This document shows positions 12,657 through 57,318 of a stretch of DNA of 64,000 nt, one piece after another. A model generated the notes under the pieces. The model made no database searches, was not told the DNA's origin, and saw nothing but the letters and a program-made list of their open reading frames with translations. The stretch is taken from contig CAUJCN010000002.1 in assembly GCA_963169855.1 (NCBI GenBank), positions 5,508 through 69,507 of the forward strand, read 5' to 3'. Position numbers and translations under genes: made by a program. Numbering within the stretch: the stretch's first letter is position 1; each line of letters begins with the position of its first letter. The stretch is from Patescibacteria group bacterium (GTDB lineage: Bacteria; Patescibacteriota; Dojkabacteria; J137).

Positions 12657-13378
12657 ACACAAATTTAAACAAACAAGACAAGATTAATTACAAAGAATCT
12701 GAGGAGAAAGAAAAGAAGTGGTATCAAAGAATTACACTGCCTATGTTTGTTATGGCAACTATTACCGCAATAATAGTAATGCTTGCACTTGCAATTGTTT
12801 ACTCTGGTGTGAACAGTCTAAGACCAACACAAATCGCAGAAGGGATAGAAGAAATTAGACTTGAGTCTGCAAATGGTCAGATAGTAATGCAGTATAAACT
12901 TTACGATAATAACGGTCGTAAAGTGTTACTAATTGTCGCAAATAATATAAGTGATACAATTTCTTTAAGAAATTTAGTCAATGGAATTGTGTATTCAAAA
13001 GGCTTGACTTTAAATGATGTAGATATCGTTTTAAAAGATTTAGATGAAGATTCATCCTTATCACCGGAAGCTTATTTTGCTCAAATTGAGAATGAAGTTG
13101 ATCCTTTAAACCCATTATTTCAAAGCGATAATAATGAATTCTATCAGGGAGAAGAAACGATTGATCCAATAGATTTTAGATTATACATTCTAGCAACGAG
13201 GTACGAAGACTCTAGATTTAGAGTTGTTCAGCTTGATGAAAATACATTTAGGATTGAGCTGAAAGAAGATTTTACTGAGGAGCGCTTTAGAAATGAGTTC
13301 TTAAAAAACTTTCTAAATACTGATGGAATAACATTTATCTTTGTTGATCAGAACTCAATCAGGGAAGAAACTCCGTAA
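12653..13378 (+). CDS. Hypothetical membrane-anchored protein translationally coupled (ATGA overlap) to the giant hydrolase
   Basis: 241 aa with one TM segment (ITLPMFVMATITAIIVMLALAIVYSG) followed by an acidic soluble domain. The start overlaps the upstream stop. Confidence 0.6.
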   Translation: MNTNLNKQDKINYKESEEKEKKWYQRITLPMFVMATITAIIVMLALAIVYSGVNSLRPTQIAEGIEEIRLESANGQIVMQYKLYDNNGRKVLLIVANNISDTISLRNLVNGIVYSKGLTLNDVDIVLKDLDEDSSLSPEAYFAQIENEVDPLNPLFQSDNNEFYQGEETIDPIDFRLYILATRYEDSRFRVVQLDENTFRIELKEDFTEERFRNEFLKNFLNTDGITFIFVDQNSIREETP

Positions 13379-17531: not shown

Positions 17532-18077
17532 ATGATAGTTCCTATTAACGAAGTTTTAGAAAATAATTGGCTTACTGGCAGAGACATTGGTAATGGAGAT
17601 GGACTAGTAGAACCAGAAGGAGCGGCGATTGATGTAAGGTTAGGAGAGATTTGGGAAATGGATCCAAATTCGGAGGCTTTTTTAGGCAAAACAACTAGAA
17701 AAACTAGAGAATATAAAAAAGTTGCAGAATACGATCCTGCACAAGAAGACAACTGGTTTACACTTGAACCAAATAAATACTATCAATTCAAGACAGTAGA
17801 AACTATGGATGTGCCACAAACTATTGTGGCTAGATTCGTTGCAAGATACAATGTACTGGCTAATGGAATAATGGTTTTAGGTTACAAAGCAGATCCTGGT
17901 TACCAAGGGCCATTCGTTGTTCCAATTATCAATCTTTCTGGAGTACCATTTAAAATGGAGCTAGGATGCAGATTTGCTCAATTTGAATTCCATAGAGTTG
18001 ATGGTGATGGAGTTATGTATAGAGGTCAATGGAAAGGAGGCAGAGTTTACACTAAAGAAGAAGAGGTTCAAGTTTAA
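17532..18077 (+). CDS. dCTP deaminase/dUTPase-superfamily protein
   Basis: DPGYQGPFVVPIINLSGVPFKMELGCRFAQFEF resembles the dCTP deaminase core (D.G..G.L.LE..N...RIAQLVF). The GTG at 17481 would overlap the terminator; the ATG at 17532 is preferred. Confidence 0.5.
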   Translation: MIVPINEVLENNWLTGRDIGNGDGLVEPEGAAIDVRLGEIWEMDPNSEAFLGKTTRKTREYKKVAEYDPAQEDNWFTLEPNKYYQFKTVETMDVPQTIVARFVARYNVLANGIMVLGYKADPGYQGPFVVPIINLSGVPFKMELGCRFAQFEFHRVDGDGVMYRGQWKGGRVYTKEEEVQV

Positions 18078-18245
18078 AATTCCCCTATAGTATTGCAATC
18101 GTATACAAAAGTGCTACAATAACTGCATGAAAAATAATTTAAAGCTGACAAACTCATGGTCAAAGCATTCAACAAGAATGTTTAGATATCTACACCTTGT
18201 AGAGCCAGGAGCTGTAAGTTAGTTAGCAAATATTTTTCAACTAAA

Positions 18246-18272
18246 AGACCTCCTGGAAAGGAGGTTTTTTTA
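18246..18272 (+). terminator. Rho-independent terminator
   Basis: acctcc-tggaaa-ggaggt hairpin followed by a T7 run. Confidence 0.6.
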
Positions 18273-18284
18273 TACCTTATTTTT

Positions 18285-18346
18285 ATTCCTGAAATGAATT
18301 CAGGATTATAAGGATTTTACTTATTCCCGTAACACGTACGGGATTA
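18285..18346. repeat. Two similar palindromes (TTATTCCTGAAatgaaTTCAGGATTAT and TTATTCCCGTAacacgTACGGGATTAT) 15 nt apart, between the terminator and the downstream operon
   Basis: Seen directly. The two units share TTATTCC...GGATTAT flanks. Candidate operator or small repeat element. Confidence 0.5.
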
Positions 18347-18375
18347 TGTAGAAGTTTATTTTTTATTATTATTTT

Positions 18376-19539
18376 ATGAGCAAAGCTCAACAAGAAATAC
18401 AATCTGTATTCGGTGCTATTCCGGTTGCAGAAGCTTTGGCGAACCCAACATTGGTTCTCGCCGACGGATCAAGTTCGTCTCCGAATTTGCGTTCGTTAGA
18501 AATGGTGTTAACAGCAATATTCGTTAGCAGATACACCGGTGAGGTTGTAACAAATTTCTATCATGGTTCTTCTTTTAGAGAAACTGCTGACAATACTTGT
18601 CTGTGGTTGAGAAAGATGGGCTTCAAGTTAGACAGAGGTTTGTTAGAGCTTCACTTTAATAGATACTTTGGTGATCCGCAGTTGCGTATAGACAACATTG
18701 CTCAGAAAATGAGAAGTAAAGGCAAAAGTGAAGAAAGCATCCAAAGGAGAATTGATTCGTTTGTATGCAATTTGCCAGTTTCTGTCTTTTCAAAAGATGG
18801 AAAAAGTCTGGTCGATCTTATTCAGACCACTAGAGAAGAAACAACAGAATTTATTTCAAATCAATTGGATTTGCAGAAACAAGGGAGTTTTATTGTAGAG
18901 AAAGCATCTGAGATGTTCGGATCAATAACTCCAAATGATGTAATTAGTAATACTGATTCTGAATTTCTAGCAAGATATCCTGTAATGAAAATCTGCTGCC
19001 CAGAGTGCTCGTTAAGTAATGAAGATGAGCCCATCGAGCACGGAGTTTCTGCAGATGGACAAATCTTTCAAAGTGTTGGAGGTGTTTCAACAAATGGGAA
19101 AATTGCTCAGAACTGTTCGTTTATAAAGAACTTAAATGAGTTCTTGTCGGGACAAACTGTTCTAGACCTTCCCGTAAGAGAGTTAATAAACATGGGTTTC
19201 AAAATTAGTGGAAAATTAATCTATTTATTAGAAACATTCTTGTACAAAAACCCAAACATAACTCAAGCAGTAAGAGCGTACTCAAATCCAAACGGAACTA
19301 TTTCTAAAGCGGCGTCAACTTACGAAGGATTAACAATCCTAACTCCGCCTTTGTACATTTATGTTTGCGATAACGGTGAGATGCGGGATGCAAACATTTT
19401 TGAGTTGATGGAGTTTATTGCAGACGGAGAAGGATTGCTACTTCTCAAAGAATTTGTATCACAGATACCGTTAGTAGACGATGGTGTTAAAAGAGTTTTA
19501 GACATTTCTAGTAAACAGATTTTAGTAACTGAATTATGA
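18376..19539 (+). CDS. Hypothetical protein, first gene of the hypothetical/GT4/LmbE operon
   Basis: 387 aa with no motif recognised. The stop overlaps the GT4 start (ATGA). Confidence 0.6.
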   Translation: MSKAQQEIQSVFGAIPVAEALANPTLVLADGSSSSPNLRSLEMVLTAIFVSRYTGEVVTNFYHGSSFRETADNTCLWLRKMGFKLDRGLLELHFNRYFGDPQLRIDNIAQKMRSKGKSEESIQRRIDSFVCNLPVSVFSKDGKSLVDLIQTTREETTEFISNQLDLQKQGSFIVEKASEMFGSITPNDVISNTDSEFLARYPVMKICCPECSLSNEDEPIEHGVSADGQIFQSVGGVSTNGKIAQNCSFIKNLNEFLSGQTVLDLPVRELINMGFKISGKLIYLLETFLYKNPNITQAVRAYSNPNGTISKAASTYEGLTILTPPLYIYVCDNGEMRDANIFELMEFIADGEGLLLLKEFVSQIPLVDDGVKRVLDISSKQILVTEL

Positions 19540-20660
19540 AAATATTAAACATACACGATTATCCACCAACAGAAGGTGGTGGAGTTGAAGTTAATGTAAG
19601 CCGAGTTGGGTCTGCATTGGTTCAAAAAGGAATTCAGTACAGAATTCTAACTAGTAGAAAAATTTCATCAGTTATTAAAAGTAATAGTTCGCAATCTGAG
19701 TTTTCTAAAGATGGTGTTGAGATAAAAATCATAAATAGTTTAAGCGAGTTGAACGATGAAATTATTAATGCTGATATAGTTAATGTTCACTTAACGTTTT
19801 CTTTAAGAACTTTAACAATGATGGCAATTGAATTATGTGCTCAACTTAATAAAAAAACTATTGTTTCTTTACGCACAACTTTCAAACATATACCCTTCTC
19901 TGCTTTGGGTGGTTTAACATCTATAGAAAAAGAGTATCAGTTAAATAAGTTAACAAAGTTATTGTCACAAGATAACTTTGTTTTAGCTGCACCATCGGTA
20001 TATTTAAAAGAGACGCTTAGCTTCTTAGGATTGAACAAACAATTAAACGTGGTTCATAATGGAATCTCTATTGTAAACAATGCCACTAGTGATAAAGAGT
20101 CTACGATATCAGTTGTCGATTTTACTTATATTGGTAATCTATCAGTTCTTAAAAACGTAGAAGGTTTATTAGAAGCATTTGCAAAACTGAACAAATTAAT
20201 TCCGAATACAAAATTAAGACTTATTGGTAACGGAGAACTAATGAATGAAGTACTTCAAAAAATTGAATACTTTGAACTAGCAAGTTCCGTAGAAGTGCTT
20301 GGATATGTTGAAAATAGGTATATTTCTGATTACTTAAAAAGTACAAAAGTACTTATACATCCGTCGTTAACAGAAGCATGGTGTAACTCAGTTGCGGAAG
20401 CCCTATCTATAGGAATTCCTGTAATCGCTTCTGGAGTTGAAGGTCTTCGTGAATTGACACAGGAGGGTAGCTTTGCAGATCTAGTTATCCCAGGTGATAC
20501 GGAATCTTTGTTTCTATCAATGAAAGAAATTCTGGAATCTAAAACAAAATACTTACATTTAAAATCTAAAGCAGACAAAGCAAAAGACTTTGTATTGTCT
20601 AACTATACGATTGAGAATCAAGCGGATCAATTAATTAAACTTTACAAATCCTTATTATGA
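19536..20660 (+). CDS. Family 4 glycosyltransferase (GT-B, retaining)
   Basis: 374 aa with C-terminal HPSLTEAWCNSVAEALSIGIPVIASGVEG (E-x7-E-like GT4 motif). Confidence 0.75.
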   Translation: MKILNIHDYPPTEGGGVEVNVSRVGSALVQKGIQYRILTSRKISSVIKSNSSQSEFSKDGVEIKIINSLSELNDEIINADIVNVHLTFSLRTLTMMAIELCAQLNKKTIVSLRTTFKHIPFSALGGLTSIEKEYQLNKLTKLLSQDNFVLAAPSVYLKETLSFLGLNKQLNVVHNGISIVNNATSDKESTISVVDFTYIGNLSVLKNVEGLLEAFAKLNKLIPNTKLRLIGNGELMNEVLQKIEYFELASSVEVLGYVENRYISDYLKSTKVLIHPSLTEAWCNSVAEALSIGIPVIASGVEGLRELTQEGSFADLVIPGDTESLFLSMKEILESKTKYLHLKSKADKAKDFVLSNYTIENQADQLIKLYKSLL

Positions 20661-21364
20661 AAAATGAAAATAAAAGAGTGTTAATTTTTACACCTCACCC
20701 AGATGACCACATTAGTTGCGGTGGTGCAATATTAAAGCTTGTAAAAAAAGGTTATGAAATTTATGAAGTTCTTTTCACAAACGGGGAAACTGGAGGTCAA
20801 ATTGGAAAAGTTGATGTAGATAAAAATGAACTTGTTCAAATACGAAAAACAGAGTTCGATAAGGCAACCGAAATCATTGGAACAAAAGAGATATTTAGAA
20901 TGAATATCCCAACAAACAACGTCGAATATAGTCCTGAATTATTTTTTGAGTTGATAAGAATCATTCGAGAGGTAAAACCAGTGTTGGCAATTATTCCTCA
21001 CAAGGATGACTATCACAGAGATCACAGAGAAGTAAGTGTGATTTCACAAGACGCTCTTACAAGAGCAGACAACAGTTTCGCCTTGCATTTAGGTGCAAGA
21101 TTCAGAGTTCCTGTGGTTCTTAGTTGTCGTGGCTTAAATCCATTAACTCGTGTAGATCTAATGGTTGATATTTCTGAAGAATTTAATCAATTGCAAAAAG
21201 TTGTCGAAGTATACAGTTCTCAGATTACGCCAAGATTGAAACAGTATACAGAATCACTTCCTAGTGCAGCTGGTTATTACATGAGAACACAATATGCAGA
21301 GGAGTATGAAGTTCCATTGAATCTTCCTATTTTTCCAAATGAAGTGTTAAAAGATTTAGCTTAG
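20657..21364 (+). CDS. LmbE/PIG-L family N-acetylglucosaminyl deacetylase
   Basis: VLIFTPHPDDHISCGGAIL (PHPDDE-like zinc-binding motif) and HRDH later. The start overlaps the GT4 stop. Confidence 0.75.
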   Translation: MKNENKRVLIFTPHPDDHISCGGAILKLVKKGYEIYEVLFTNGETGGQIGKVDVDKNELVQIRKTEFDKATEIIGTKEIFRMNIPTNNVEYSPELFFELIRIIREVKPVLAIIPHKDDYHRDHREVSVISQDALTRADNSFALHLGARFRVPVVLSCRGLNPLTRVDLMVDISEEFNQLQKVVEVYSSQITPRLKQYTESLPSAAGYYMRTQYAEEYEVPLNLPIFPNEVLKDLA

Positions 21365-25578: not shown

Positions 25579-25579
25579 A

Positions 25580-25985
25580 ATATGTTCATTCTCATAAGCC
25601 GGATTCTGTTTTAAGGACAATTTCTCTATGCCCCGCCAATGGCAGGTTGCTTTATGCAGGGGTTACCAGCGACTTAATATTACTATTTAGTCCGGTGGTC
25701 TCTTACGCCACCATTTCACCATCACCCAACTACGCCAAAGGCTTAGTCGGGCAGTATCTTTCTGTTGCCCTTTTCTCCCTGAGATCACTCCCAGCCTATA
25801 TTCTGATACAAGTGTTCGTCGTATCAGCTTAAAGGTGCATATCTCGTTAACTTGCAGGCTTTTAAAAGTTTCTGTTTGTCGTACGAGACCAAATTAAAGT
25901 CCGGACTTTCCTCCCGACTACGCTAAAGCTTCGTCGGGTAAACCCAACTAGCCTCGCAAATCGAGTAGTCCAACGGAATGAATCG
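25580..25985 (-). ncRNA. rnpB: RNase P RNA, bacterial type A
   Basis: On the minus strand: P4 5' half GGAAAGTCCGGACT (revcomp of about 25897-25910), GGTGAAATGGTGGCGTAAGAGACCACC (cf. GGUGAAAcGGUGcGGUAAGAGcgCACC) and ACAGAATCCGGCTTATGAG (P4 3' half). A P3 hairpin cccgacgaagctttagcgtagtcggg is present. P1 strands GAUUCAUUC/GAAUGAAC define the ends. Confidence 0.85.
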
Positions 25986-38614: not shown

Positions 38615-39526
38615 ATGGAGATTCCGGAAGAATTACAAAAACTCTATTCCCATTGGGAAAAGCACTCAAACTTTAAAATTGACAAGCCGCATAACTCCAT
38701 CATAGACTTTTCTCTGCTTTCTCAAATTGAGTTATTCATTTCAGAGAGAATGTATGTGTGGGAAAAGAAAATCTCAAACTCCCCAAAACCGTTCACATCT
38801 GATCAGATTTTATCCAACTATAGATTCTGTAATATTTATAGAGAGCTCGATAAGCAAACTATTACTATTCATAAGGACATTTCAAATTTAAAGAGTAATT
38901 TTGATTTGTGGCTTTTAAATTTAGCTTTTCATAGATTTGTATGTAGACCCGAAACTATATCAGAGGTAGGCCACTTGTCTTTTGACGACTCTAACAATAG
39001 AAAAGTTTTCGATAATCTGAGTAAACATTCGCGTCCGAAATACGGAACAGCATACATCTTCCCAATAAGTACCATTCAACGGAGTAAATATACAACCAGA
39101 GAGGAATTCTTCTGTTTTTATTTACCATTAGTAATTCCAGAAATCTCTGAATTACTTCAAAGTTTCGAAAACAAAACTGTAAATTCGTCATTAAAAGAAA
39201 TACTACCTTTATTTAAGTTCAATTTGAAATTCCACTGGACTGAAATATTGATTGATGTTGCTTATCAATTTCCTGAACTAATCAACCTATTTGAAGATTT
39301 TCATGTAGGTCCAGGAGCAATACCAACTTTACAAAGATTGGTTAAATCAAATGATATAAATTCAGGGTTGAATGAACTTCCGAATATCGAACTAAAATCC
39401 TTTCCCTATCTAACCTTGAATGATAGAAAAGTGCCTCTTTCTGCAGAGAACTGGGAAGGAATAGGATGTGAGTTTAGAAAATATACTAACTTGAAAAAAG
39501 GAGCTGGTAGAAAAAGAAGATTTTAA
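38615..39526 (+). CDS. Hypothetical protein (303 aa) adjacent to tRNA-Asn
   Basis: No family recognised; conserved-looking FCNIYRELDK segment. Confidence 0.5.
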   Translation: MEIPEELQKLYSHWEKHSNFKIDKPHNSIIDFSLLSQIELFISERMYVWEKKISNSPKPFTSDQILSNYRFCNIYRELDKQTITIHKDISNLKSNFDLWLLNLAFHRFVCRPETISEVGHLSFDDSNNRKVFDNLSKHSRPKYGTAYIFPISTIQRSKYTTREEFFCFYLPLVIPEISELLQSFENKTVNSSLKEILPLFKFNLKFHWTEILIDVAYQFPELINLFEDFHVGPGAIPTLQRLVKSNDINSGLNELPNIELKSFPYLTLNDRKVPLSAENWEGIGCEFRKYTNLKKGAGRKRRF

Positions 39527-44233: not shown

Positions 44234-44300
44234 ATTTAATTTATCATACACAAAGTTTTAAACTTGTACTATTCGAACTAAATTATTACAATTGTCCAGT

Positions 44301-45209
44301 ATGCAATTTAGGAAAAACCACATCACAATCACATTCATAATACTTTTGATCCTTGGAGGTATTACAATATATTTTGTAAATAAGACTCTCAATTCAAATA
44401 TTGTAACTCAGTATAAAGGATTTACAATAGACGAAAAGAAAAGTACTTACGAAAATTTATCATCTATTCCTGAGTTTTCATTGTTCTTAGATAGCGTTGC
44501 TAGAACAAGAATGGATTTTTTATTGAAAACTGAACCAGAGATTTTAACTTTAGCTGTTGTAAACGAAGGATTCGCTTCGATATCTCCTGAACAAACCGCT
44601 AAACTACAAACTCCTGAACAACTTCATAAATTGGAGAAAATTGTTCAGCTGCATTTTGTAAGAATGACAGGAGTTGATCTAAACAAGCTTGGAGATTTAA
44701 CAACAATTGGTGGGCAAAAAATTAGAGTTACTTCTCAAGACGGGACATATTCTATCCGTGATTCTGTAGGAAACACTTTTAAATTCGACAAATCCGTTTA
44801 TAAAACAGCAAATGGGTATTTTGTAAAACTAGATCAGATTCTGTTACCTACAAACGTTTCTTTCGCTAATGGTGTTCAAATTGAGCTTGATGAGACAATT
44901 GTCGAAAATGTAGATTTATTTGCGGGGAAAGAAAAGTGGACAGATGAACAAGACGCAAAATTGAAAAGCGATAACATTACGTACCTATTTTCTGAGGAGA
45001 TTGCTGAAGGAAAAACAATTGAAGACTATATATTAGTAGGGAAATATTCTGTATTTCAAATTGCAAATTTCACAGAAGTTAGATCTGCAACAGGATTAAC
45101 TTTACCAGTTACTGTGAGTGAAAACGAAATTAAAATTGGCGATCTCACAGTTGTTCCAGTACTCAATAACATAGAATCCAAAAACGGATTCATCCATTTT
45201 GTAAGATAA
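44301..45209 (+). CDS. Fasciclin (FAS1) domain-containing secreted protein
   Basis: N-terminal TM anchor; LTLAVVNEGFASISP (TxFAPxNxAF-like), LHFV and a C-terminal NGFIHFV (NGVIHxID-like). ATG at 44301 is preferred over TTG at 44292. Confidence 0.5.
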   Translation: MQFRKNHITITFIILLILGGITIYFVNKTLNSNIVTQYKGFTIDEKKSTYENLSSIPEFSLFLDSVARTRMDFLLKTEPEILTLAVVNEGFASISPEQTAKLQTPEQLHKLEKIVQLHFVRMTGVDLNKLGDLTTIGGQKIRVTSQDGTYSIRDSVGNTFKFDKSVYKTANGYFVKLDQILLPTNVSFANGVQIELDETIVENVDLFAGKEKWTDEQDAKLKSDNITYLFSEEIAEGKTIEDYILVGKYSVFQIANFTEVRSATGLTLPVTVSENEIKIGDLTVVPVLNNIESKNGFIHFVR

Positions 45210-45270
45210 CTTTCCTTAGTTGTACACTAAGCTCTACTTTATGTCATAATGGTATATTTACAAAATAACT

Positions 45271-46272
45271 ATGCTTAATACAATAACTACAGCAATATTA
45301 ATCGGATTTTTCGCAACAGCAATTTGGGCTCCGATATTAATTCAACTTTTATACAAGATGAATTTAGTTGTGAAAACAATCATGATGCCTGATCGTTCTA
45401 ACGAGGAATTTATGAAAATTCATGGACACAAATTTGGCACACCAACATTAGGTGGATTAATGATTTCCGTAACAGTAGCGATTGTATCTTTGTTTTTGAT
45501 TCCTGAACCGAATCTAAGATTAGTTTTCATTCTTCCTTTCGTTATTTATACAATTTACGGATTGGCTGAGGGAATGTTAACTTACGGTAGAAAGTTAAGT
45601 ACTAGATTAAAAGCTTTAGATAATAGTTTCGGTGTCAGATTAGGTAAACTTGTTCTACTATACTTAATTACTTTGCTTCCGCTAATTTTGCTTCAAAATC
45701 ACTACGGATTAAATAGCATTACATTCCTTGGAATAATTATTCCAGTCAATGCAGTTTCAATAATTATTGGATCGCTGTTCATGGTTTTTGCTATCTATGG
45801 AATGGAAATCATTGATGGTGCTGATGGCTTAGCAACTGGATTGTTCTTAATAGCGTTGGCTGCCTATATTGTTATTTCTGCAGCAACTGGTCATACAGAA
45901 TTACTTCCAATAATTGGTCTATTGATTGGTTCTTGTATTGTGTATTTGTACTTCAACATAAACCCAGCTAGAGTTTTCATGGGAGGAACGGGAACATTCC
46001 CAATCGCTTATTCTCTTTTGATGTTTGCTCTGATAACTAACACCGTAGATATTTTCTTTATAATGGGATTGGCTTTCTGGGCGGAAGTAACTTCCAGCTT
46101 CTTGCAAATTTTCTCGATGAAATTTTTAAAGAAAAAATTATTCAGAATTGCACCAATCCATCACTATTTCGAAGCTATTGGTTGGCCAGAAACAAAAATG
46201 GTGCAAAGATTTTGGTTGGCAGGAATTTGTTTTGCTTTACTATCACTTTGGATTTTCTCTGTAACCAGGTAA
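45271..46272 (+). CDS. mraY: Phospho-N-acetylmuramoyl-pentapeptide transferase MraY (or close polyprenyl-phosphate HexNAc-1-P transferase paralog)
   Basis: GTPTLGG, IIDGADGLA and C-terminal RIAPIHHYFEAIGWPE...RFW, closely matching the MraY APIHHHxELKGWPEPRV..RFW signature. Confidence 0.72.
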   Translation: MLNTITTAILIGFFATAIWAPILIQLLYKMNLVVKTIMMPDRSNEEFMKIHGHKFGTPTLGGLMISVTVAIVSLFLIPEPNLRLVFILPFVIYTIYGLAEGMLTYGRKLSTRLKALDNSFGVRLGKLVLLYLITLLPLILLQNHYGLNSITFLGIIIPVNAVSIIIGSLFMVFAIYGMEIIDGADGLATGLFLIALAAYIVISAATGHTELLPIIGLLIGSCIVYLYFNINPARVFMGGTGTFPIAYSLLMFALITNTVDIFFIMGLAFWAEVTSSFLQIFSMKFLKKKLFRIAPIHHYFEAIGWPETKMVQRFWLAGICFALLSLWIFSVTR

Positions 46273-46300
46273 ATAACCTCTTGATAGGGTAAAATAGGTT

Positions 46301-47719
46301 ATGACAGAAAGTTTTCTGAAAGTGTTACCACTTGCTTCTTATTTGATTGTGTTACTTACTCCTTTAATTATTTTGGCTATAGATGCCAGGGCTTTTACTT
46401 TCATTTTCTTTCTTTATGTTCTATACGGAATAATAAAATCTGCTAGTTTACTTTTAGGAACGATTGTTGGTTATTATCGCTTCAAATACGAAAGTCGAAT
46501 TAATTGGAAACAGAAACTTCTTAGTACAAATGAATCACTACCAAATCAACTTATAGCAATTCCTGTATACAAGGAAGATTTTTCGATCATAGCGAGATGT
46601 TTGGATTCAATAGTTACTCAAAATTACGATACTGAAAAACTCTTTGTATCTATTTCTATTGAAGAGAATCTAAAGTTTAATCATTTGAAGGAACAGATTT
46701 TGTGTAAGTACGAATCGATATTTAAGAATCGTATACTTGTTGTCCAACACATCCTACAACCAGACGAAGTTAAAGGAGCTGCATCAAATAGAACTTATGC
46801 TGTAAAAGAATTTTTAAGACAAACAGGACTTAAAGTTGAAGATTTTCTAGTAACATCTCCTGATGCTGATACTGTTTTTAACCAACAATACTTCTCTCGA
46901 ATTGCATACCAGTGGATTATCGATGGCTACTCTTATAACGTTTTTTATCAAACTGGAGCTTATAAATTTGACAACAACTTAAGAAAAGTACCTTTGATGG
47001 TTAGAATAGTTTCGATAGGAATTAGCCTTGGAACTTTATCCTCTGCTGTGACAGAAAATAAATACCGTTATACTTTCTCGTGTTTTACAATCCCATTGAG
47101 AACACTTATTGATATTAATTTTTGGGATATTTCGATTTCTATTGATGATACACCTCTTTACTGGAGAGCTTTTGATTATTTTAAAGGAAACTTTGAATGC
47201 AGGACTTTTTATATTCCAATCTCCGTAGATGCTATAGACTCGAAGAATTACTTCGATGCTCACGTTAAGCAATACAGGCAAATTCATCGGTGGGGTTGGG
47301 GTGTCATTGTATTTCCAAGTGCAATAAGAGCTTTGCTGAAAAGCGAAACTAATTTTACAAGAAAGTTAATCTCAACTTTATATTTCTTTGACATTTCAGT
47401 GTTCCTAAAGGCAATGCCAGCAAGTATTATTTTCTATCTACTTTTGATAAACACTTCAAATTTTTTAAGCACAATATCTTACATCAGCTTTGTGTTTCTA
47501 GTCGTAGGAAGTCCATGGGTGTTCAAATTCTCCCTAGAAAATAGTAAGATGTCTTTACTAACGGCATTGACAACAATTTTGTTTTTTTTACCAATGGGTT
47601 TAGTAAATATTTATCTTTATTGCTTAATTCCATTCTTTCATGCTGCAATTGAATTTGCATTTGGAATGAATGTAGTCAATAGAATTAATTGGTCGATAAA
47701 ATTACCAGAAGATGCGTAA
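46301..47719 (+). CDS. Family 2 membrane glycosyltransferase (processive-type, QxxRW motif)
   Basis: AIPVYKED...LDSIVTQNY (GT2 N-terminal pattern), DxD-like SPDADT, QIHRWGWG (Q-x-x-RW), and TM helices at both ends. Confidence 0.62.
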   Translation: MTESFLKVLPLASYLIVLLTPLIILAIDARAFTFIFFLYVLYGIIKSASLLLGTIVGYYRFKYESRINWKQKLLSTNESLPNQLIAIPVYKEDFSIIARCLDSIVTQNYDTEKLFVSISIEENLKFNHLKEQILCKYESIFKNRILVVQHILQPDEVKGAASNRTYAVKEFLRQTGLKVEDFLVTSPDADTVFNQQYFSRIAYQWIIDGYSYNVFYQTGAYKFDNNLRKVPLMVRIVSIGISLGTLSSAVTENKYRYTFSCFTIPLRTLIDINFWDISISIDDTPLYWRAFDYFKGNFECRTFYIPISVDAIDSKNYFDAHVKQYRQIHRWGWGVIVFPSAIRALLKSETNFTRKLISTLYFFDISVFLKAMPASIIFYLLLINTSNFLSTISYISFVFLVVGSPWVFKFSLENSKMSLLTALTTILFFLPMGLVNIYLYCLIPFFHAAIEFAFGMNVVNRINWSIKLPEDA

Positions 47720-50678
47720 ATTCATAAAACTAAAAACAACAAGGAATCTCGATAAGATTAAAGAGTCAAATTCCAAGAGAGTTTTCGCTATAGATATAAC
47801 TAGAGCATTTGCTGTTTTGACAATGATTATTACCCACGTTGTCGCGATAGTTTTTAGTCATAAAGAAGGATCAAGCGGGGTTACATTTTTGATTGGTGCG
47901 TTTGGTGGAACTGTCTCGTTTACATTATTCCTTCTAGTATCCGGAGCAACTAGTTACTTTACAACAATTTCACTTGAAGGACTTACTAAAAAAGGTATCC
48001 GTCGAAGACAATTCAAATCATTTAAGAGAACTCTTCAAATACTATTTGCATACTATTTACTGGCGGCGCTTTCTCTTTTTGTATACGGATTAGCATTTAC
48101 AACAAAAACTAGTGAGGCAATTATCACAGATATTCTTCAAATTCTTCTTTTATTAAGAGTTCCAGAATTTACTGAATTCTTGGTTACATTTGTGGTATTC
48201 AGTTTAACTCTAATCTTCTTCAGAAGAGTTTACAGATTCTTGCTGAGCGATTCACGAATTCTAATACTAGCTGGTGCCATTTCGTACTTTATAGGAACAA
48301 TTATATACAGAATCGACTTGGGTAACGACAGGGCAAACTTGCTTAAAGCTTTGTTCGCTGGACACGAAAACGTTCATACATTTCCATTCCTTCAATACTT
48401 TCCAATCTTACTAACAGGATTATTCATTGGAAAATATATTTCAGCTAGAGATCAAATTCATCCAAGAGCATTCATGACTAGGTTATTTAAGCTCCTCGGA
48501 ATTGTTGCTATCCCTGCAGTTGTTTGTATTGTACTCGCAACTATTATCCCAGATGGCATCTTTGGTTATACAGTTTTCGGAGATAGATTCCCACCACAAT
48601 TAGGATTTATTCTCCTAAGCATTACTCTTTCGTTGTTTGCAATGACATTGGTTCTTTATGCAGAAAAATTCTTTGTTAGAGCGAGAAGTATTGTGACATT
48701 CATAAGTAAAAACGCCTTGTCTTTCTTCGTTGTTCATACGGCACTATTGCTATCGTTTAAGTATTACATGGATACTAATTTCAAAGATGTTGATTGGCGT
48801 TACGATCGATTCCTCTCAGTTTTCCTTTTTTATATTGGAGTCTTAGTAGCTTCGGTTTTTGTAATTTACATTAAAGAAAAGTTGATTGGACTTTACTTTG
48901 TGATTGACGGATATCTAAATACTCATCATTACATAGTTGATTTCCTACTTCCAATTGCTGCAGTTGGATTAGTAATTGCTACAGTATTCTTTACAATTTC
49001 AGATAATAGAATCGTTAGTGGAAAAGAATTAAATATAAATGTAAATGAAGTTAAGAGAGATTTCGAAATTAACGATAATGCCGAAATGTGGTATGACGAT
49101 AACTTTAGATACTATAAACGTGTTAATGTGGAAGATTTGACTAGTGATCAGATTTTCCTATCTCAAAGATGGGCTAAAGTGTCTTTCAATCATAAATCTG
49201 TTGTTGAAGAAAACAATTTGAGAAAAGAATCCGGCGAAGATATACGAGTTGTGGAATTCGATGGAATTACATTCACAGAAGTGCCTATAGTAATTACTTC
49301 ACCTAATTCAGATAGTACTAAAGTTGTTTTTAAATTCAATCCTGGAGAAGTACAGTACTTTATATATTATGGCAACGATTACTCTGCAATGTCCGCTGCG
49401 CCTACAGATCAAGCAGGAATAGAAAATGCTGTTGATGTTAATACTGGAGACCAGAATCAGCACATTCTTAGATCTAGTACAAACAAAAGGTGGTTGCTAA
49501 AGGATTATTCTCAATCACCAAGACTTCAATTATCTGTAGTTGTTCCTGAAGAAATCAGAAGTATTCAGTATATAGTTTTCGAAATTGAAAATACTGATCT
49601 AAGAGGTGAGATGATTACTTCAGACTCGGTAAACTATTCTGCAGAAATTGATACATCAGTTTTGAATCCTGGATACTACACAATTCAAGCTACAGCAATA
49701 GAATTGAGAGATAGTATAAATGTTTACAATACTTACAAAATTCCATTCTTTGTAAGCTATCCTTTGTTCATGACTTGGACTTTGGACTGGGAAGGTTGGG
49801 GAGTAGCACAATACGAATCAAACGACATTTTTGATATTTCTTCGAGATACGGAATGCCAGTTACACATTTTTTTAATCCTAGAATTTTTGTACAGAATCA
49901 ATATTCAATCTATTCAGTAAATCCAGGAGAAGCTCAGTATTATGTAAATTTAGTTAACCAAAGAAAAACCCAAGGAGATGCAATTGGCCTTCACCTACAT
50001 TATTATGCAGATTTATTGGAAGAAATTGGAGTTCCAAAAAGAGCGACAGCTCAGATTGTAGGAAGCAATCGAGACGAAACATCATTAGATGCTTACACCC
50101 AAGAAGAGTCGGAAAAGATTTTGCAATGGAGTATCGATAAATTTGCTGAGCACGGCCTTCCTAGACCAACAATGTTTAGATCCGGTGGTTGGATGACGAG
50201 CTCTGCATTGCTTAAAGCTCTAGCTAATAAAGGGTTTGATCTTGACTCATCCGGAAGAACAGGTGGTGTTTTAAACCCTGCATGGACAGGTAGTACAATT
50301 ATTCCCTGGAATTTAAGTGGAACAACAATGCCATTCAAACCAAATGTAAACAATATTAACGCTTGGGATGGAGAGAGAATTAACATTTTTGAATTCCCTA
50401 ATAACGGTGCTGACTCTTATTGGTTTCCAATTGAAGAATTAATAGCCAGATTTAATCAGAACTATCCTACTAAAGGAGAAATTATGCAAAAGCCACAAGT
50501 TCTTACATATCTAAGTCACCCTCATGGATTCCCTGTATTCGATTCTACAAAAATTAGAAGTTTATTTGATTATACTGGCAATTATCAATTCAAAAACGAT
50601 GATGGGCCTGTAGTTTACTCAACATTAGAAACTACCTATAATGAGTGGAATAAGTTATCATTTATAAATGGAAACTAA
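47712..50678 (+). CDS. Acyltransferase-3 (OafA-like) membrane domain fused to a large extracytoplasmic domain of unknown fold
   Basis: N-terminal RVFAIDITRAFAVLTMIITH (AT3 family start) with about 10 TM helices, then about 550 aa of soluble domain. It overlaps its neighbours by 8 and 11 nt. Confidence 0.6.
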   Translation: MRKFIKLKTTRNLDKIKESNSKRVFAIDITRAFAVLTMIITHVVAIVFSHKEGSSGVTFLIGAFGGTVSFTLFLLVSGATSYFTTISLEGLTKKGIRRRQFKSFKRTLQILFAYYLLAALSLFVYGLAFTTKTSEAIITDILQILLLLRVPEFTEFLVTFVVFSLTLIFFRRVYRFLLSDSRILILAGAISYFIGTIIYRIDLGNDRANLLKALFAGHENVHTFPFLQYFPILLTGLFIGKYISARDQIHPRAFMTRLFKLLGIVAIPAVVCIVLATIIPDGIFGYTVFGDRFPPQLGFILLSITLSLFAMTLVLYAEKFFVRARSIVTFISKNALSFFVVHTALLLSFKYYMDTNFKDVDWRYDRFLSVFLFYIGVLVASVFVIYIKEKLIGLYFVIDGYLNTHHYIVDFLLPIAAVGLVIATVFFTISDNRIVSGKELNINVNEVKRDFEINDNAEMWYDDNFRYYKRVNVEDLTSDQIFLSQRWAKVSFNHKSVVEENNLRKESGEDIRVVEFDGITFTEVPIVITSPNSDSTKVVFKFNPGEVQYFIYYGNDYSAMSAAPTDQAGIENAVDVNTGDQNQHILRSSTNKRWLLKDYSQSPRLQLSVVVPEEIRSIQYIVFEIENTDLRGEMITSDSVNYSAEIDTSVLNPGYYTIQATAIELRDSINVYNTYKIPFFVSYPLFMTWTLDWEGWGVAQYESNDIFDISSRYGMPVTHFFNPRIFVQNQYSIYSVNPGEAQYYVNLVNQRKTQGDAIGLHLHYYADLLEEIGVPKRATAQIVGSNRDETSLDAYTQEESEKILQWSIDKFAEHGLPRPTMFRSGGWMTSSALLKALANKGFDLDSSGRTGGVLNPAWTGSTIIPWNLSGTTMPFKPNVNNINAWDGERINIFEFPNNGADSYWFPIEELIARFNQNYPTKGEIMQKPQVLTYLSHPHGFPVFDSTKIRSLFDYTGNYQFKNDDGPVVYSTLETTYNEWNKLSFINGN

Positions 50679-52947
50679 CGAACCCCCAAAACAAAACGAG
50701 GTTGCGGAAGTCACACTAACTTCTAGAGGAAGAGGAAAAAAAGTTGCTCATACAACATTTTATCCACTATTCTACTTTTTTTCTAATATAGAAAAAGGAA
50801 TCCAGAAAACTGTCTCTGCAGTATTACATTTCCCTAGAAAGCTTTTTTCATTGATTGATAAAAGAACTCTTAAAATTGTATTAGGAATCATTGCAATAGA
50901 GATTGTAATTGGCTACCTTATAGCCTGGTTATATTTAGATATTACAGCTCCCCAGGATATTACTTATTACTTAAGCAAAGTTGATTTTGATGTTTACGCT
51001 GTATTGATGATTGCTATCTTTGGTATTTTCTTGATAGGAAATCTTTTCCAAATTACAATTGGATTTTATGAATCAAGATTCAGTAAAAAAAGATTTGCAT
51101 TATTCAATGTAATTCTAGTTGTAGCATTTGTAGTATTGTTCCTGGGAGCTTACGTTTTCAGACATCCTGAAATGCAAAATAGCTATCCTAAATATGCACA
51201 AGCAATGGAGGATTACACAAAGCCGATTGAAGTTTTATTCAATCTACCAGTCGATGTCTCCGCTTTGAAACCAACAATTACACCAGAATTAAAAGGAGTG
51301 TGGGAATGGGAACCATACTTGGGAAATAATGCTATGACTAGAAGAGGTAAATTTCATGCAGAGATTTCTGCATTCCCTGACCAACGTTTTGTAATCTACA
51401 TTCCAGGAATTAAGAAATTTACAGATCCAACTGTGCATGAATATGGATTCGCATTTAAGGCACCGCCTTTACCAGCAATCGTATCTACATATCCTGAGCA
51501 GGGATCTGTTACAGCAAAAAGAGACGATCAGGTTGTATTTAGAATTGATAGGGACAGTAGAGATCTTGTAGATTGGAGCTTTAGACTTCTCCCATCTACA
51601 GAATTTGATGTAGTCTTCGAAGAATCGGACATTATAATCAAACCTAAGGCATTGTTGGAACAAGGAAAATCTTATACTCTAACAGCAGCCTATAGGCCAA
51701 AGCAAATTAATCTACTAACCAAAGAATCTGTGTCTTTTGGCGAATCTATTAATAAAATTGATTTAAAATTCACGACTATAAAAGAACCATTAATTGACAC
51801 TTTCAAACCAACTGGCAACACTGTAATAATCTCTGAGCAGATAAAAATTAAGTTTACAGAAGAAATGAACAGAGAAAGTGTTGAAGAAAAAATGAAAATA
51901 GAGCCAGCAATCGAGGGCGAAATTGTTTGGACAGACGATAAAAATTTAACTTATGTAAACGAAGAGCCTTTGCCAAAAGATACTGCTTACAAAGTTACTT
52001 TTGCTTCTGGAATGATGAGTAAAATGGATGGAGTTTCTAACAAAGAAATTACTTATGATTTTAAAACAATCGGTAAAGTAAGAATTTCTGATTATTCTCC
52101 AGGTAATGGAGCTACATATGTAAGTGAATACACTGATATTAGAATTGCTTTCGATCAGGAAGTGAACAAGGATGAAGCTCAATCGCATCTAGTTGTCTCA
52201 CCTGCTTACCAAGCTGTATTTAGGTGGGAAGGAAATACAATGATTCTTGCAGCTCTTCAACCTATGGCATTTAATACTACATATTCGGTAAGGTTGACTG
52301 CTGGTGTTCAATCGATCAACGGATTGCCGAGTACGGACGAAATCAATTTCAGTTTTACTACAAGATCAAATGTCTACGTTTTTACAATGCCAATCTACTA
52401 TCAACCAGCAGGTAGTTTCTCTTGTAATATCTACACTGCAAAAATGGTGTTAGCTTACAAAGGTCATTCAGCTGATGCAACTGGATTAATTGCAGAAATT
52501 GGTTATGACGAAGGCAGGTCAGGAAATTCATGGACAGGAAATCCATATGCAGAATATGTTGGAAACGCTGACGGAAGCTGGGGTTACGGTGTTTACTATC
52601 CACCTATTCAGAATATTTTCGCTGCAAGAGGGATATCTTCTGATCCTAAGGTTGGATGGAATGTTTCAGATTTGGCACGAGAAGTTCAACAAGGAAGACC
52701 TGTAGTTATTTGGAGATACAACGGAGTTAGTAGCGGTGCAAACATTTCTTGGACATCTGATGACGGAACTTATGTACCAGCATTTAGTGGGATGCACGGT
52801 GGAGTTGTAACTGGATTCACGGGTCCTGTAGAAAATCCTACGAGTTTCTACTTAAATGACCCTTGGTTTGGTCCATTCTGGTTAGACGTTGGTACTTTTG
52901 ATTATTACTGGTCGTTCTCTAATAGAATGGCTCTAATCGTTTACTAG
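50668..52947 (+). CDS. Large membrane-anchored surface protein with repeated Ig-like segments and a C-terminal C39-like cysteine peptidase-like domain (tentative)
   Basis: TM segments near the N-terminus. The C-terminal QPAGSFSCNIYTAKMVLAYKG follows the Q-x5-C-x6-M-x-L-x-Y-x-G pattern of peptidase_C39-like proteins, with downstream His (GMHGG) and Asp/Asn (NDPW). Confidence 0.5.
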   Translation: METNEPPKQNEVAEVTLTSRGRGKKVAHTTFYPLFYFFSNIEKGIQKTVSAVLHFPRKLFSLIDKRTLKIVLGIIAIEIVIGYLIAWLYLDITAPQDITYYLSKVDFDVYAVLMIAIFGIFLIGNLFQITIGFYESRFSKKRFALFNVILVVAFVVLFLGAYVFRHPEMQNSYPKYAQAMEDYTKPIEVLFNLPVDVSALKPTITPELKGVWEWEPYLGNNAMTRRGKFHAEISAFPDQRFVIYIPGIKKFTDPTVHEYGFAFKAPPLPAIVSTYPEQGSVTAKRDDQVVFRIDRDSRDLVDWSFRLLPSTEFDVVFEESDIIIKPKALLEQGKSYTLTAAYRPKQINLLTKESVSFGESINKIDLKFTTIKEPLIDTFKPTGNTVIISEQIKIKFTEEMNRESVEEKMKIEPAIEGEIVWTDDKNLTYVNEEPLPKDTAYKVTFASGMMSKMDGVSNKEITYDFKTIGKVRISDYSPGNGATYVSEYTDIRIAFDQEVNKDEAQSHLVVSPAYQAVFRWEGNTMILAALQPMAFNTTYSVRLTAGVQSINGLPSTDEINFSFTTRSNVYVFTMPIYYQPAGSFSCNIYTAKMVLAYKGHSADATGLIAEIGYDEGRSGNSWTGNPYAEYVGNADGSWGYGVYYPPIQNIFAARGISSDPKVGWNVSDLAREVQQGRPVVIWRYNGVSSGANISWTSDDGTYVPAFSGMHGGVVTGFTGPVENPTSFYLNDPWFGPFWLDVGTFDYYWSFSNRMALIVY

Positions 52948-52949
52948 TT

Positions 52950-53579
52950 ATGAAAGGAAAATATCTCGACACATTGGCTTTTATCTACGTTATTTTAGGA
53001 ATAGCTATTGCTGGAATATTTTTCTTCAATGCTGAAAATCTTAGGTTACTAACTCTAAACAAACTAACTATTGATAGTCAGGATGATTACGAACTTGATT
53101 ACCCAACTGGAGATTTGGTGGATATAACTTTAACTCCAAGTTCAATTTTCAAAACTGGGGAGGTTGTGAATGGTATTAACTATTCAATATTTTCTACCGA
53201 AGAGTTCATCTTTGACTTTATTGTTATTGCAAACAAATATCCAGAAACTAAAACTACTTTCAGTTGTAGAGATGCTACAAGTTTCAAAAAAGATCTTCTA
53301 AATAAACTTGTAGAAGAATTTAATAAACCTGTTGATATAGCATCAGTTTTAGAAGATGAGGGAATTTACTTGAGTTCGGAAAGCCAGACATCACTTCTTC
53401 AAAATACTACTGGAAACTTTGGGACTTCTACAAGATTGCTTGATTGTACCGATGCAGTTGTTAGAAGTAAGGTAGAAGTTTACTTCGTTATTGGGTTAGA
53501 AATAATAGTTGTAGTTGCAGGAGTTCTATTTATCTTCAGAAAAAAGATTGGCCAAGCTTTCGAAGAGATAGAAACTTAA
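52950..53579 (+). CDS. Hypothetical bitopic membrane protein, last gene of the envelope operon
   Basis: 209 aa with N- and C-terminal TM segments. Confidence 0.45.
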   Translation: MKGKYLDTLAFIYVILGIAIAGIFFFNAENLRLLTLNKLTIDSQDDYELDYPTGDLVDITLTPSSIFKTGEVVNGINYSIFSTEEFIFDFIVIANKYPETKTTFSCRDATSFKKDLLNKLVEEFNKPVDIASVLEDEGIYLSSESQTSLLQNTTGNFGTSTRLLDCTDAVVRSKVEVYFVIGLEIIVVVAGVLFIFRKKIGQAFEEIET

Positions 53580-56358: not shown

Positions 56359-57318
56359 CTATTCCTTCTTTTTGTAAGGTGGGAGAATATCTTCGTCCAG
56401 TCTGAACAAGTGCGGTTTCTCTCTTCGATGAGTTTTATCTAGGCTTATAAAAAAGTTTGGTAAGTTATCTTGAATCTTATGACCAAACACAATACTTGTT
56501 CCCCAAGTTACAATTTGTCCTTTGTAAGCGATTTCAATTCTTTTATTCGGTTGTGTTAGCTTTAGATCTATTTTGTATTCAATATCGTCATCATTATCTT
56601 TTACAAGCCATTCAGCTACTCTTCTTTGAACATGTCTCTTAATATCCCCATTCCCTGCCATAAGTCGAACTCTAAATTCTATGGGTTTATGAAACGGTTT
56701 GAATTCTCTAATCGTACTTATGATCGAAGAAATTACCTGAGATCCGCTATTTGATGAGTCATCAAATCTGTAATAAATAATTTTTTCTTGGTTTGCAGCA
56801 CTTTGTCTATCTTCAAATTGTAGTGGTACACTAAATTTAACTCTCATTTGATTTTCTGGAGACAGCATTCCATAAACCATTTTTGCAAAGTAAGTTTCGC
56901 TACTATCTTCATAATAATCGGTTTCAAAAATGACTACTGAATTTGGATTTGCAGATAATTCTTGTTCCACTTCTGCTGCATATTCCTTCATAATCGATAC
57001 AATCTCTTTATTCGAAACATATTTAAGTTCCGCAATTCCCTTCATGAATGCCTGAACAAATTCTTCATCTGGGTCTTCTTGCTGAACGATCTTTCTAATG
57101 TTTTCATCATCTGCCCAGTTAGGCTTCGATAGTAGATCTCCTTGAAATTCCTGCCACACAACTCTTATATTTTTTAGAAAATCAGGAAGTCTTTCGGTTC
57201 TTAGTTCTTCAGCAAATTGTGGATGATCTACTCCAACTTCGTTTATAAAATTCTGAATGGATTGTTCAACTGTTGGGACTGATTCTGGAATCTCTGTGAC
57301 TAATTGATCTAGTGGCAT
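56359..57318 (-). CDS. Hypothetical protein (319 aa, acidic)
   Basis: ORF with ATG start and no motif recognised. Confidence 0.5.
   Translation of the reverse strand: MPLDQLVTEIPESVPTVEQSIQNFINEVGVDHPQFAEELRTERLPDFLKNIRVVWQEFQGDLLSKPNWADDENIRKIVQQEDPDEEFVQAFMKGIAELKYVSNKEIVSIMKEYAAEVEQELSANPNSVVIFETDYYEDSSETYFAKMVYGMLSPENQMRVKFSVPLQFEDRQSAANQEKIIYYRFDDSSNSGSQVISSIISTIREFKPFHKPIEFRVRLMAGNGDIKRHVQRRVAEWLVKDNDDDIEYKIDLKLTQPNKRIEIAYKGQIVTWGTSIVFGHKIQDNLPNFFISLDKTHRREKPHLFRLDEDILPPYKKKE

Follow-up and report, generated by a model that had tools for sequence, protein, structure and literature searches.

Gene content of the locus

Within a 64-kb stretch of DNA from a Patescibacteria group bacterium, referred to here as the window, a run of six open reading frames (ORFs) on the + strand (positions 44301-53579) includes a gene for a homologue of MraY, a polyprenyl-phosphate phosphosugar transferase, which lies outside any division and cell wall (dcw) cluster and has altered catalytic residues. 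The junctions between the six genes are +61, +28, -8, -11 and +2 bp, and separate gene calling on five independent Logan contigs of identical sequence returned the same six genes, which bears out the short or overlapping junctions described in the first-pass annotation of this DNA. The first gene (44301-45209, from an ATG at 44301; the mechanical ORF runs from a TTG at 44292) encodes a membrane-anchored fasciclin-domain protein of 302 aa, which matches PF02469 at 1.3e-12 in two stretches and has one N-terminal hydrophobic segment. It is followed by the MraY-like gene (45271-46272, 333 aa) and by a gene for a membrane-integrated, processive-type family 2 glycosyltransferase (GT2; 46301-47719, 472 aa). 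The fourth gene (47712-50678), whose start overlaps the GT2 stop by 8 bp, encodes a 988-aa fusion of an acyltransferase-3 (AT3) domain with a DUF2334-like domain; the fifth (50668-52947), which overlaps the AT3 gene by 11 bp, encodes a 759-aa membrane protein with Big_5/Big_10 repeats and a Peptidase_C39_2 domain (the C39-like protein); and the sixth (52950-53579) encodes p209, a 209-aa protein with N- and C-terminal hydrophobic segments. Profile and structure searches upheld the fasciclin, MraY-family, GT2, AT3 and C39-like assignments made beforehand, whereas p209, previously described as bitopic, has two predicted transmembrane (TM) segments instead of one.

The window has a GC content of ~34% and small genes, and encodes SecA, ClpB and several tRNA synthetases. 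The closest named relatives are metagenome-assembled genomes (MAGs) of Candidatus Dojkabacteria and Patescibacteria; a cluster look-up of the window proteins returned no names.

Active site and ancestry of the MraY-like protein

The MraY-like protein matches PF00953 (Pfam) at 9e-17, and its best NCBIfam model is TIGR00445 (mraY; 6e-39, 134.4 bits over model positions 21-316 of 321, below the 192-bit equivalog cut-off), whereas the wecA model scores only 20.7 bits (1.9e-4); between MraY and WecA, the profiles thus assign the protein to the MraY type. Solved MraY chains in the PDB match it at 3.5e-27 to 2e-22, and nine hydrophobic segments are predicted, compared with the ten TM helices of MraY. 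It retains K54, TPTLGG, DGADGL, NxxPAR, Q279, PxHH and GWxExKxxxRFW, and the uridine-pocket residues (D182, G183, D185, G186, L187, K54, P58 and G61-G62) are conserved in both the variant and the canonical sets of homologues. The catalytic residues were mapped by alignment to solved MraYs, with the numbering checked on the Aquifex structure 4J72. D117-D118 are replaced by E100-G101 (45568-45573), N190 by E179 (45805-45807) and the Mg-binding D265 by G239 (45985-45987), so that the catalytic DDD motif (D117, D118 and D265 in Aquifex) reads E100, G101 and G239 in the window protein. The HHH of loop E has become H297-H298-Y299 (46159-46167), in which the first two histidines are kept; other members of the variant clade described below retain HHH. 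The MraY signature that the first-pass annotation had quoted is consequently not intact, with EG for DD, FMGG for FMGD and HHY for HHH.

In MraY, D117, D118 and D265 form an essential "DDD motif" (PMC6606608). D265 is a Mg ligand, and the adjacent N190 touches the same inhibitor amine as D265 (PMC6606608). In human GPT, the equivalents of N190 and D265, namely N185 and D252, jointly bind the Mg ion (PMC10258461), which makes a relocated metal ligand plausible in the window protein.

Positions 179 and 239 of the window protein covary without exception across 119 MraY homologues: Asn at 179 is accompanied by Asp at 239 in 29 of 29 homologues, Glu or Asp at 179 is accompanied by Gly, Ala, Ser or Glu at 239 in 90 of 90, and the two states never mix. 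The main variant clade comprises 87 sequences and is monophyletic, and the MraY-specific motifs other than the altered catalytic ones are invariant across it. The swap is also found in P0092 and P0111, which share 46-51% identity with canonical MraYs, no more than 36% with the main variant clade and only 45% with one another. A complete dcw cluster (L026; MraZ-RsmH-FtsL-FtsI-MurE/F-MraY-MurD-FtsW-MurG-MurC-MurB-FtsQ) has P0092 as its sole MraY, and the swap has therefore recurred and is compatible with a functioning cell-wall pathway. Together, the exception-free covariation and the canonical-like swap cases point to a relocated metal carboxylate rather than to inactivation; to judge by the alignments, the swap looks like the relocation of a metal ligand and not like the mark of a dead enzyme.

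The missing aspartates had initially been read as those of a dead pseudoenzyme, a reading that was downgraded in the light of the covariation and the dcw context of L026. In its fuller form, this alternative holds that the MraY-like protein is inactive and has been retained as a ten-helix scaffold for the binding of polyprenyl phosphate, a uridine nucleotide or both, acting as a non-enzymatic subunit or regulator of, for example, the GT2. The loss of two of the three essential DDD residues would be expected of such a scaffold, as would the stepwise decay of the DD pair within the main clade (from DD to DE or DK, then to DA, DV or DC, and finally to EG or DG) and the existence of type B PNPT-like partners of GT2 relatives (see below), which lack a carboxylate at both metal positions and are nevertheless conserved and coupled to the GT2. 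However, the repeated compensation at position 179, to which there is no exception, speaks for the preservation of a metal site; the sole MraY of one full dcw cluster is of the swap type; position 100 never carries anything but Asp or Glu; and H297, H298 and the uridine-pocket residues are invariant. We thus consider an inactive scaffold improbable.

No mur, fts, mraZ, rsmH or pbp gene was found in the window or within 10 kb of the MraY-like gene in about a dozen related genomes, in agreement with the earlier statement that this mraY homologue stands outside a dcw context. Additionally, a tblastn search for peptidoglycan and dcw genes (queries FtsW, MurG, Mur ligases, MurB, FtsI, FtsL, FtsQ, MraZ, RsmH and Alr; four dcw clusters of the candidate phyla radiation, CPR), in which the positive controls were cross-detected, gave no match in 322 kb of Dojkabacteria-type DNA, which is a weak test because this DNA amounts to ~0.3 genome equivalents and peptidoglycan genes cluster. 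Two reviews describe WS6/Dojkabacteria as having no or incomplete peptidoglycan synthesis (PMC9698310; PMC10031880).

Deep-branching relatives of the gene are found at the place where a dcw mraY would lie. In two deep-branching members of the main clade (L027 and L028), the MraY-like gene closes a reduced dcw cluster (MraZ-RsmH-FtsL-FtsI-MraY-like), with no Mur ligase, FtsW or MurG after it; downstream in L028 lie TatD, RsmI, MgsA, TyrRS and RelA. In the Dojkabacteria-type locus L010, RelA, TyrRS, MgsA and TatD directly precede an isolated MraY-like gene, and L028 and L010 thus share TatD, MgsA, TyrRS and RelA around it. Other relatives, of 42-58% identity and including two chromosomes of ~1.1-1.2 Mb, carry the MraY-like gene as an orphan in varied contexts. 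In a tree with the WecA-like partner proteins of GT2 relatives (see below) as the outgroup, the variant clade falls inside MraY as the sister of the canonical P0096 and P0090, of which P0096 belongs to the dcw cluster of a MAG labelled Dojkabacteria (L012). The relatives in the dcw slot and the nesting in the tree, taken together, favour the descent of the MraY-like gene from a dcw mraY, followed by stepwise erosion of the cluster.

These results speak against the suggestion of the first-pass annotation that the gene might be an extra paralogue, since deep-branching clade members occupy the ancestral dcw position and the clade is nested inside MraY proper. A more specific form of that suggestion is that the variant is an old paralogue that shares its genomes with a canonical dcw MraY and serves as the priming enzyme for another lipid-linked glycan. 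The comparison of L012 with L028 could be read in this way: the two loci are fairly close (MraZ 63%, RsmH 59% and FtsI 52% identity), yet in L012 a canonical MraY follows FtsW-MurG and no MraY follows FtsI, whereas L028 has the variant after FtsI, the two MraYs being 33% identical. Nevertheless, both types were never seen in one genome, no canonical match was traced to a variant-bearing genome, the variant fills the ancestral MraY slot in L027 and L028, and the main variant clade is the sister of P0096 and P0090, as expected of orthologues. An old paralogue is accordingly the alternative to which we give the least credence, and we regard it as highly improbable.

The GT2 module and its putative transferase partners

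The whole block, plus an upstream MutS gene and an HMA-DsbD gene, is kept in three other species-level genomes (L013/L016, L014 and L017), and this recurrence indicates that the block is not a chance arrangement; the contig scan of genome representatives, a set that does not include the window genome, returned 10 loci. The MraY-like protein is the most conserved of the region, with 79-85% identity to the window in L013, L014 and L017, followed by MutS (69-79%), the AT3 fusion (64-72%), the C39-like protein (55-71%) and the GT2 (49-57%), and the fasciclin protein is the least conserved of the block (38-56%). As the four genomes are syntenic throughout, the adjacency of the MraY-like and GT2 genes counts as one evolutionary event. 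The four genes for the GT2, the AT3 fusion, the C39-like protein and p209 recur without the MraY-like gene in L030 and L031; these translationally coupled genes are a real module, and only in the window organism and its closest relatives does the MraY-like gene adjoin it.

The GT2 has two N-terminal TM helices, a GT-A domain, an interface helix with QIHRW (47279-47293) and C-terminal TM helices; its DAD and DD motifs lie at 46862-46870 and 47144-47149. The window protein gave no Pfam match and, in NCBIfam, only 17.7 bits to NodC. Its orthologues carry PF13632, and the family is small (29 matches), with D188xD190, D282-D283 and Q327xxR330W331 invariant in the 29 homologues. Sequence searches of the PDB with the GT2, the AT3 fusion and the C39-like protein yielded nothing usable. 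An AlphaFold2 (AF2) model of the GT2 built on the 29 homologues (pLDDT 90, pTM 0.89) found as its best PDB matches in Foldseek the Chlorella-virus and Xenopus hyaluronan synthases, BcsA and yeast Chs1 (E ~1e-10, TM-scores of 0.5-0.59, probability 1.00). By its modelled fold, the GT2 is a hyaluronan/cellulose-synthase-type enzyme.

A metagenome scan with a 14-sequence GT2 subset returned 80 loci of 25-42% identity. Of the 75 loci in which the downstream sequence was long enough, 70 have, on the same strand and directly after the GT2 relative, a gene for a 480-540-aa Glycos_transf_4 protein, a member of the PNPT superfamily to which MraY and WecA belong; with few exceptions, this gene overlaps that of the GT2 or is separated from it by no more than 58 bp. 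Counted by cluster, the arrangement holds in 41 of 48 at 90% identity and in 16 of 22 at 70%. These partners (L036-L108) are nearer to WecA than to MraY in NCBIfam, with scores far below any cut-off, and have an N-terminal TM extension of ~170 aa. The Asp of the FMGD-type motif is missing from every one of them: the subtype with "NVVDWLDGLDGL" and "YLGGGAF" shows the same swap as the variant MraY, and subtype B, with "SWSNGVDGQ" and "MWGFGA", has a carboxylate at neither metal position, yet it is conserved and overlaps the GT2 gene. That the WecA-like partners and the variant MraY form one lineage was considered and rejected, because they belong to separate families with ~18-22% identity. The habitual position of this GT2 family beside a non-canonical PNPT protein lends indirect support to a transferase-synthase partnership, and, in other uncultivated bacteria, a WecA-like transferase appears to provide this GT2 family with its lipid primer or anchor.

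A frequent neighbour of the GT2-PNPT pair is TatD, directly upstream. Two genes after the PNPT-like gene, a UbiA-family enzyme is encoded (L046:13397-14326 and equivalents in 44 loci), which resembles decaprenyl-phosphate phosphoribosyltransferase (DPPR synthase) at 197 bits against a cut-off of 234; the combination of WecA-like and UbiA genes recalls the priming of mycobacterial arabinogalactan by WecA plus DPPR synthase.

In the AT3 fusion, residues 1-430 form the AT3 acyltransferase membrane domain (PF01757, 42 bits; cut-off 31), and nine hydrophobic segments lie between residues 26 and 431. A beta-rich middle region of ~240 aa (440-683) leads to a C-terminal domain of 305 aa (684-988), which scores 28.0 bits against DUF2334 when searched alone (cut-off 26) and 24.8 bits in the full protein, and matches Polysacc_deac_1 weakly (0.0037). 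An AF2 model of residues 420-988, made from 6 sequences, reached a pLDDT of 46 and was left out of the fold search. An exhaustive search for the fusion family found 459 representatives at 50% identity, whereas a word-indexed search found only 6; many members are ~950-1000 aa long with the same layout. Among 52 sampled relatives (the P0156-P0304 set), 33 match AT3 and 17 match DUF2334, and D692, H761, H763 and H936 are invariant. Judged from these profile matches and lengths, the AT3-linker-DUF2334 architecture is a large uncharacterised family. In L031, a 629-aa acetyl-CoA synthetase-like protein (17636-19522) is encoded directly after the p209 homologue; it may supply the AT3 acyl donor.

The C39-like protein has three predicted TM segments (66-167) and Ig-like Big_5/Big_10 repeats (Big_5 1e-25), and its C-terminus matches Peptidase_C39_2 at 1.6e-17 (64.8 bits against a cut-off of 24). 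Gln579, Cys586 (52423-52425), His710 and Asp731 are kept in four orthologues, down to 46% identity. No ABC transporter gene is present in the block or its flanks, which departs from what is expected of a bacteriocin-processing C39 peptidase. The gene for p209 always follows the C39-like gene (L013, L014, L017, L030 and L031); the protein has a middle part of ~140 aa between its two hydrophobic segments and gave no Pfam or NCBIfam match.

Interpretation of the locus

The locus appears to join two parts of different age, a dcw-derived MraY-like gene and the downstream four-gene module. The reading that we prefer, tentatively and with a little less than even confidence, is that the MraY-like protein is an orphaned and rewired phosphosugar transferase that provides the synthase module with a lipid primer or anchor. 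The gene would have become isolated as the dcw cluster eroded in a Dojkabacteria-like CPR lineage, and its product, which is probably active, would still transfer a phosphosugar from a UDP-sugar to polyprenyl phosphate. The Mg carboxylate would have left the FMGD motif, where D265 has become Gly, for the neighbouring position -3 of DGxDGL, where N190 has become Glu, so that Glu179 would hold Mg, Glu100, the survivor of the first Asp of the DD pair, would act as the base, and the second Asp would be dispensable. The GT2 would polymerise a glycan from a UDP-sugar and extrude it through its own membrane channel; the AT3 domain would pass acyl groups outward, and the fused external domain, of putative deacetylase fold, would modify the polymer. 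The external Ig-repeat protein, with its papain-fold Cys/His module, may process or attach something at the surface, where p209 would be a small accessory protein with two TM segments. The lipid-linked product of the MraY-like protein would then prime or anchor the GT2 product in the window organism and its closest relatives.

Several observations weigh against this reading. Synthases of the HAS/BcsA class (HAS, hyaluronan synthase) work without lipid-linked primers. The MraY-like/GT2 adjacency occurs only in four closely related genomes, in which the MraY-like protein is at least 79% identical; relatives of at most 58% identity have an MraY-like gene with no GT2 within 10 kb; and the module of L030/L031, at 39-48% identity, has no PNPT gene within 10 kb. 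The clusters with the GT2-PNPT arrangement merge into a single linked cluster at 50% identity, and the pairing may thus be one ancestral event. A promoter and terminator scan showed no enrichment over shuffles and is uninformative on co-transcription. Furthermore, D118, which is Gly in the MraY-like protein, is essential in the MraYs studied (PMC6606608). The glycopolymer operon including mraY that had been proposed for this region therefore stands in part: a GT2-PNPT link is independently supported, whereas the MraY-like/GT2 adjacency is confined to the closest relatives. In the same way, the proposed route from a lipid-linked glycan to the GT2 keeps its GT2, but this enzyme is of the hyaluronan/cellulose-synthase type, a class with no need of a lipid-linked primer.

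An alternative is that the protein is simply the organism's real MraY, making lipid I and displaced from a scattered dcw cluster, with the module an autonomous exopolysaccharide system and the adjacency coincidental. The coexistence of the swap with a complete dcw cluster in L026 agrees with such an explanation, as do the DA and DV variants, which lack the second Asp and still lie directly after FtsI in L027 and L028, the full retention of the MraY-specific motifs outside the DDD motif, the scores of 134 bits for mraY and 21 for wecA, the strong constraint on the MraY-like protein, the independence of HAS/BcsA-type synthases from primers and the occurrence of the module without an MraY-like gene in L030/L031. 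Conversely, no peptidoglycan or dcw gene was detected in the 322 kb of Dojkabacteria-type DNA, within the limits of that weak test (~0.3 genome equivalents); the reviews report missing or incomplete peptidoglycan synthesis in WS6/Dojkabacteria (PMC9698310; PMC10031880); the window subclade has, beyond the swap, EG in place of DD and HHY in place of HHH; and 0 of 29 canonical MraY matches came from long contigs bearing variant copies. On balance, we regard a displaced but ordinary MraY as somewhat unlikely, and continue to prefer a rewired transferase that serves the synthase module.

A bolder extension of the preferred reading is that the PNPT superfamily has a second, so far unrecognised active-site layout, in which the Mg carboxylate sits on the DGxDGL helix (N190 to D/E) instead of in the FMGD motif (D265 to G) and which arose several times, that in Dojkabacteria, after the loss of their canonical peptidoglycan genes, the remaining MraY of this kind was recruited as the lipid-primer enzyme of a hyaluronan-synthase-like GT2, and that the product is a replacement wall polymer. 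We believe this to be unlikely as a whole; were it true, a lipid-primed synthase pathway would build a replacement wall polymer that is acylated or deacetylated and handled by a surface protein of the Cys-peptidase fold.

MraY is an essential antibiotic target, and the three aspartates are regarded as invariant. An inhibitor hot spot has been named at D265 (PMC6606608), and a large natural clade, together with independent cases, replaces D265 by Gly while the adjacent Asn becomes Asp or Glu; the swap thus bears on how inhibitor contacts could be lost. A relocated ligand predicts that an N190D/E + D265G double mutant would be active and each single mutant would not. The locus also offers a view of what is left in a minimal epibiotic bacterium as its cell-wall gene cluster is taken apart. 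Moreover, two uncharacterised and widespread pairings emerge from it, namely a HAS-like GT2 followed by a non-canonical WecA-like protein, and the AT3-DUF2334 fusion family with hundreds of members; both may specify envelope polymers in CPR bacteria, which attach to their hosts through their surfaces. In the literature searched, we found no account of such MraY or PNPT variants in CPR bacteria, and the relocated-ligand MraY, its orphan survival in a lineage whose dcw cluster has eroded and the pairing of the GT2 family with a non-canonical PNPT appear to be undescribed there.

Other features of the window and of related loci are recorded here. The ORF at 7515-12656 (+) encodes a protein of 1713 aa that has a Peptidase_M23 domain close to its C-terminus, and a 241-aa ORF with no family match follows and overlaps it at 12653-13378 (+). 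In L006, giant M23+NAGPA+GDSL proteins, a LysM-M23 protein and GH18 are encoded near the MraY-like gene; M23-type proteins near MraY-like relatives may be a wall-degrading arsenal of an epibiont. Three coupled genes at 18376-21364 (+) encode a 387-aa protein without assignment, a GT1-fold glycosyltransferase (PF00534) and a PIG-L family GlcNAc deacetylase, and the latter two resemble BshA/BshB or MshA/MshB pairs. A bacterial RNase P class A RNA lies at 25579-25949 (-), with an Rfam score of 100.2 against a gathering threshold of 100. A 303-aa protein at 38615-39526 (+) matches Pfam HMUDK_hel, the helical domain of 5-hydroxymethyl-dU DNA kinase, a family known from phage DNA hypermodification. 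Lastly, a 319-aa protein at 56359-57318 (-) gave weak, sub-threshold matches to PRTase-CE and the Reb1 Myb-associated domain.

Comparison with known systems

All parts of the locus belong to known superfamilies, and nothing in it is therefore categorically new. The MraY-like protein resembles MraY (Aquifex 4J72, C. bolteae 5JNQ and E. coli 8TLU) over the full length of the ten-helix protein and shares KxGTPTxGG, DGxDGL, NxxPAR, PxHH and GWxExKxxxRFW with it; it differs in the D117E, D118G, D265G, N190E and H326Y replacements, in its sub-cut-off score and in having no dcw neighbourhood. WecA/TagO and GPT (DPAGT1) belong to the same PNPT superfamily, and the same reaction type is expected, but the window protein is clearly of the MraY type. 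With hyaluronan synthase, BcsA and chitin synthase, the GT2 shares the predicted fold, the topology, DxD, the QxxRW interface helix and the flanking TM helices. Its identity to them is only 10-15%, "DD" replaces the ED/TED base motif, and there is no PilZ or other regulatory domain; in addition, its family habitually neighbours a PNPT-family gene, whereas those synthases do not.

As a parts list, the module is presumably comparable to icaADBC/pgaABCD, which likewise combine a GT2 synthase, an AT3-family protein (IcaC-like) and a deacetylase-fold protein (IcaB/PgaB-like). In the window, however, the AT3 domain and the putative deacetylase fold are fused, the latter is DUF2334-like rather than a clear CE4, and there is no IcaD/PgaD or porin, so that the likeness is one of parts alone. 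OafA/OafB and OatA also carry an AT3 domain fused to a large external domain of catalytic type that acts on a surface glycan; their external domain is SGNH, whereas that of the window fusion has a putative DUF2334/deacetylase fold and follows a beta-rich linker of ~240 aa. The C39-like protein shares its Gln/Cys/His/Asp set with Peptidase_C39_2 proteins (Bacillus YvpB and BtrH-type), and, unlike them, joins this domain to three TM segments and Ig-like repeats.

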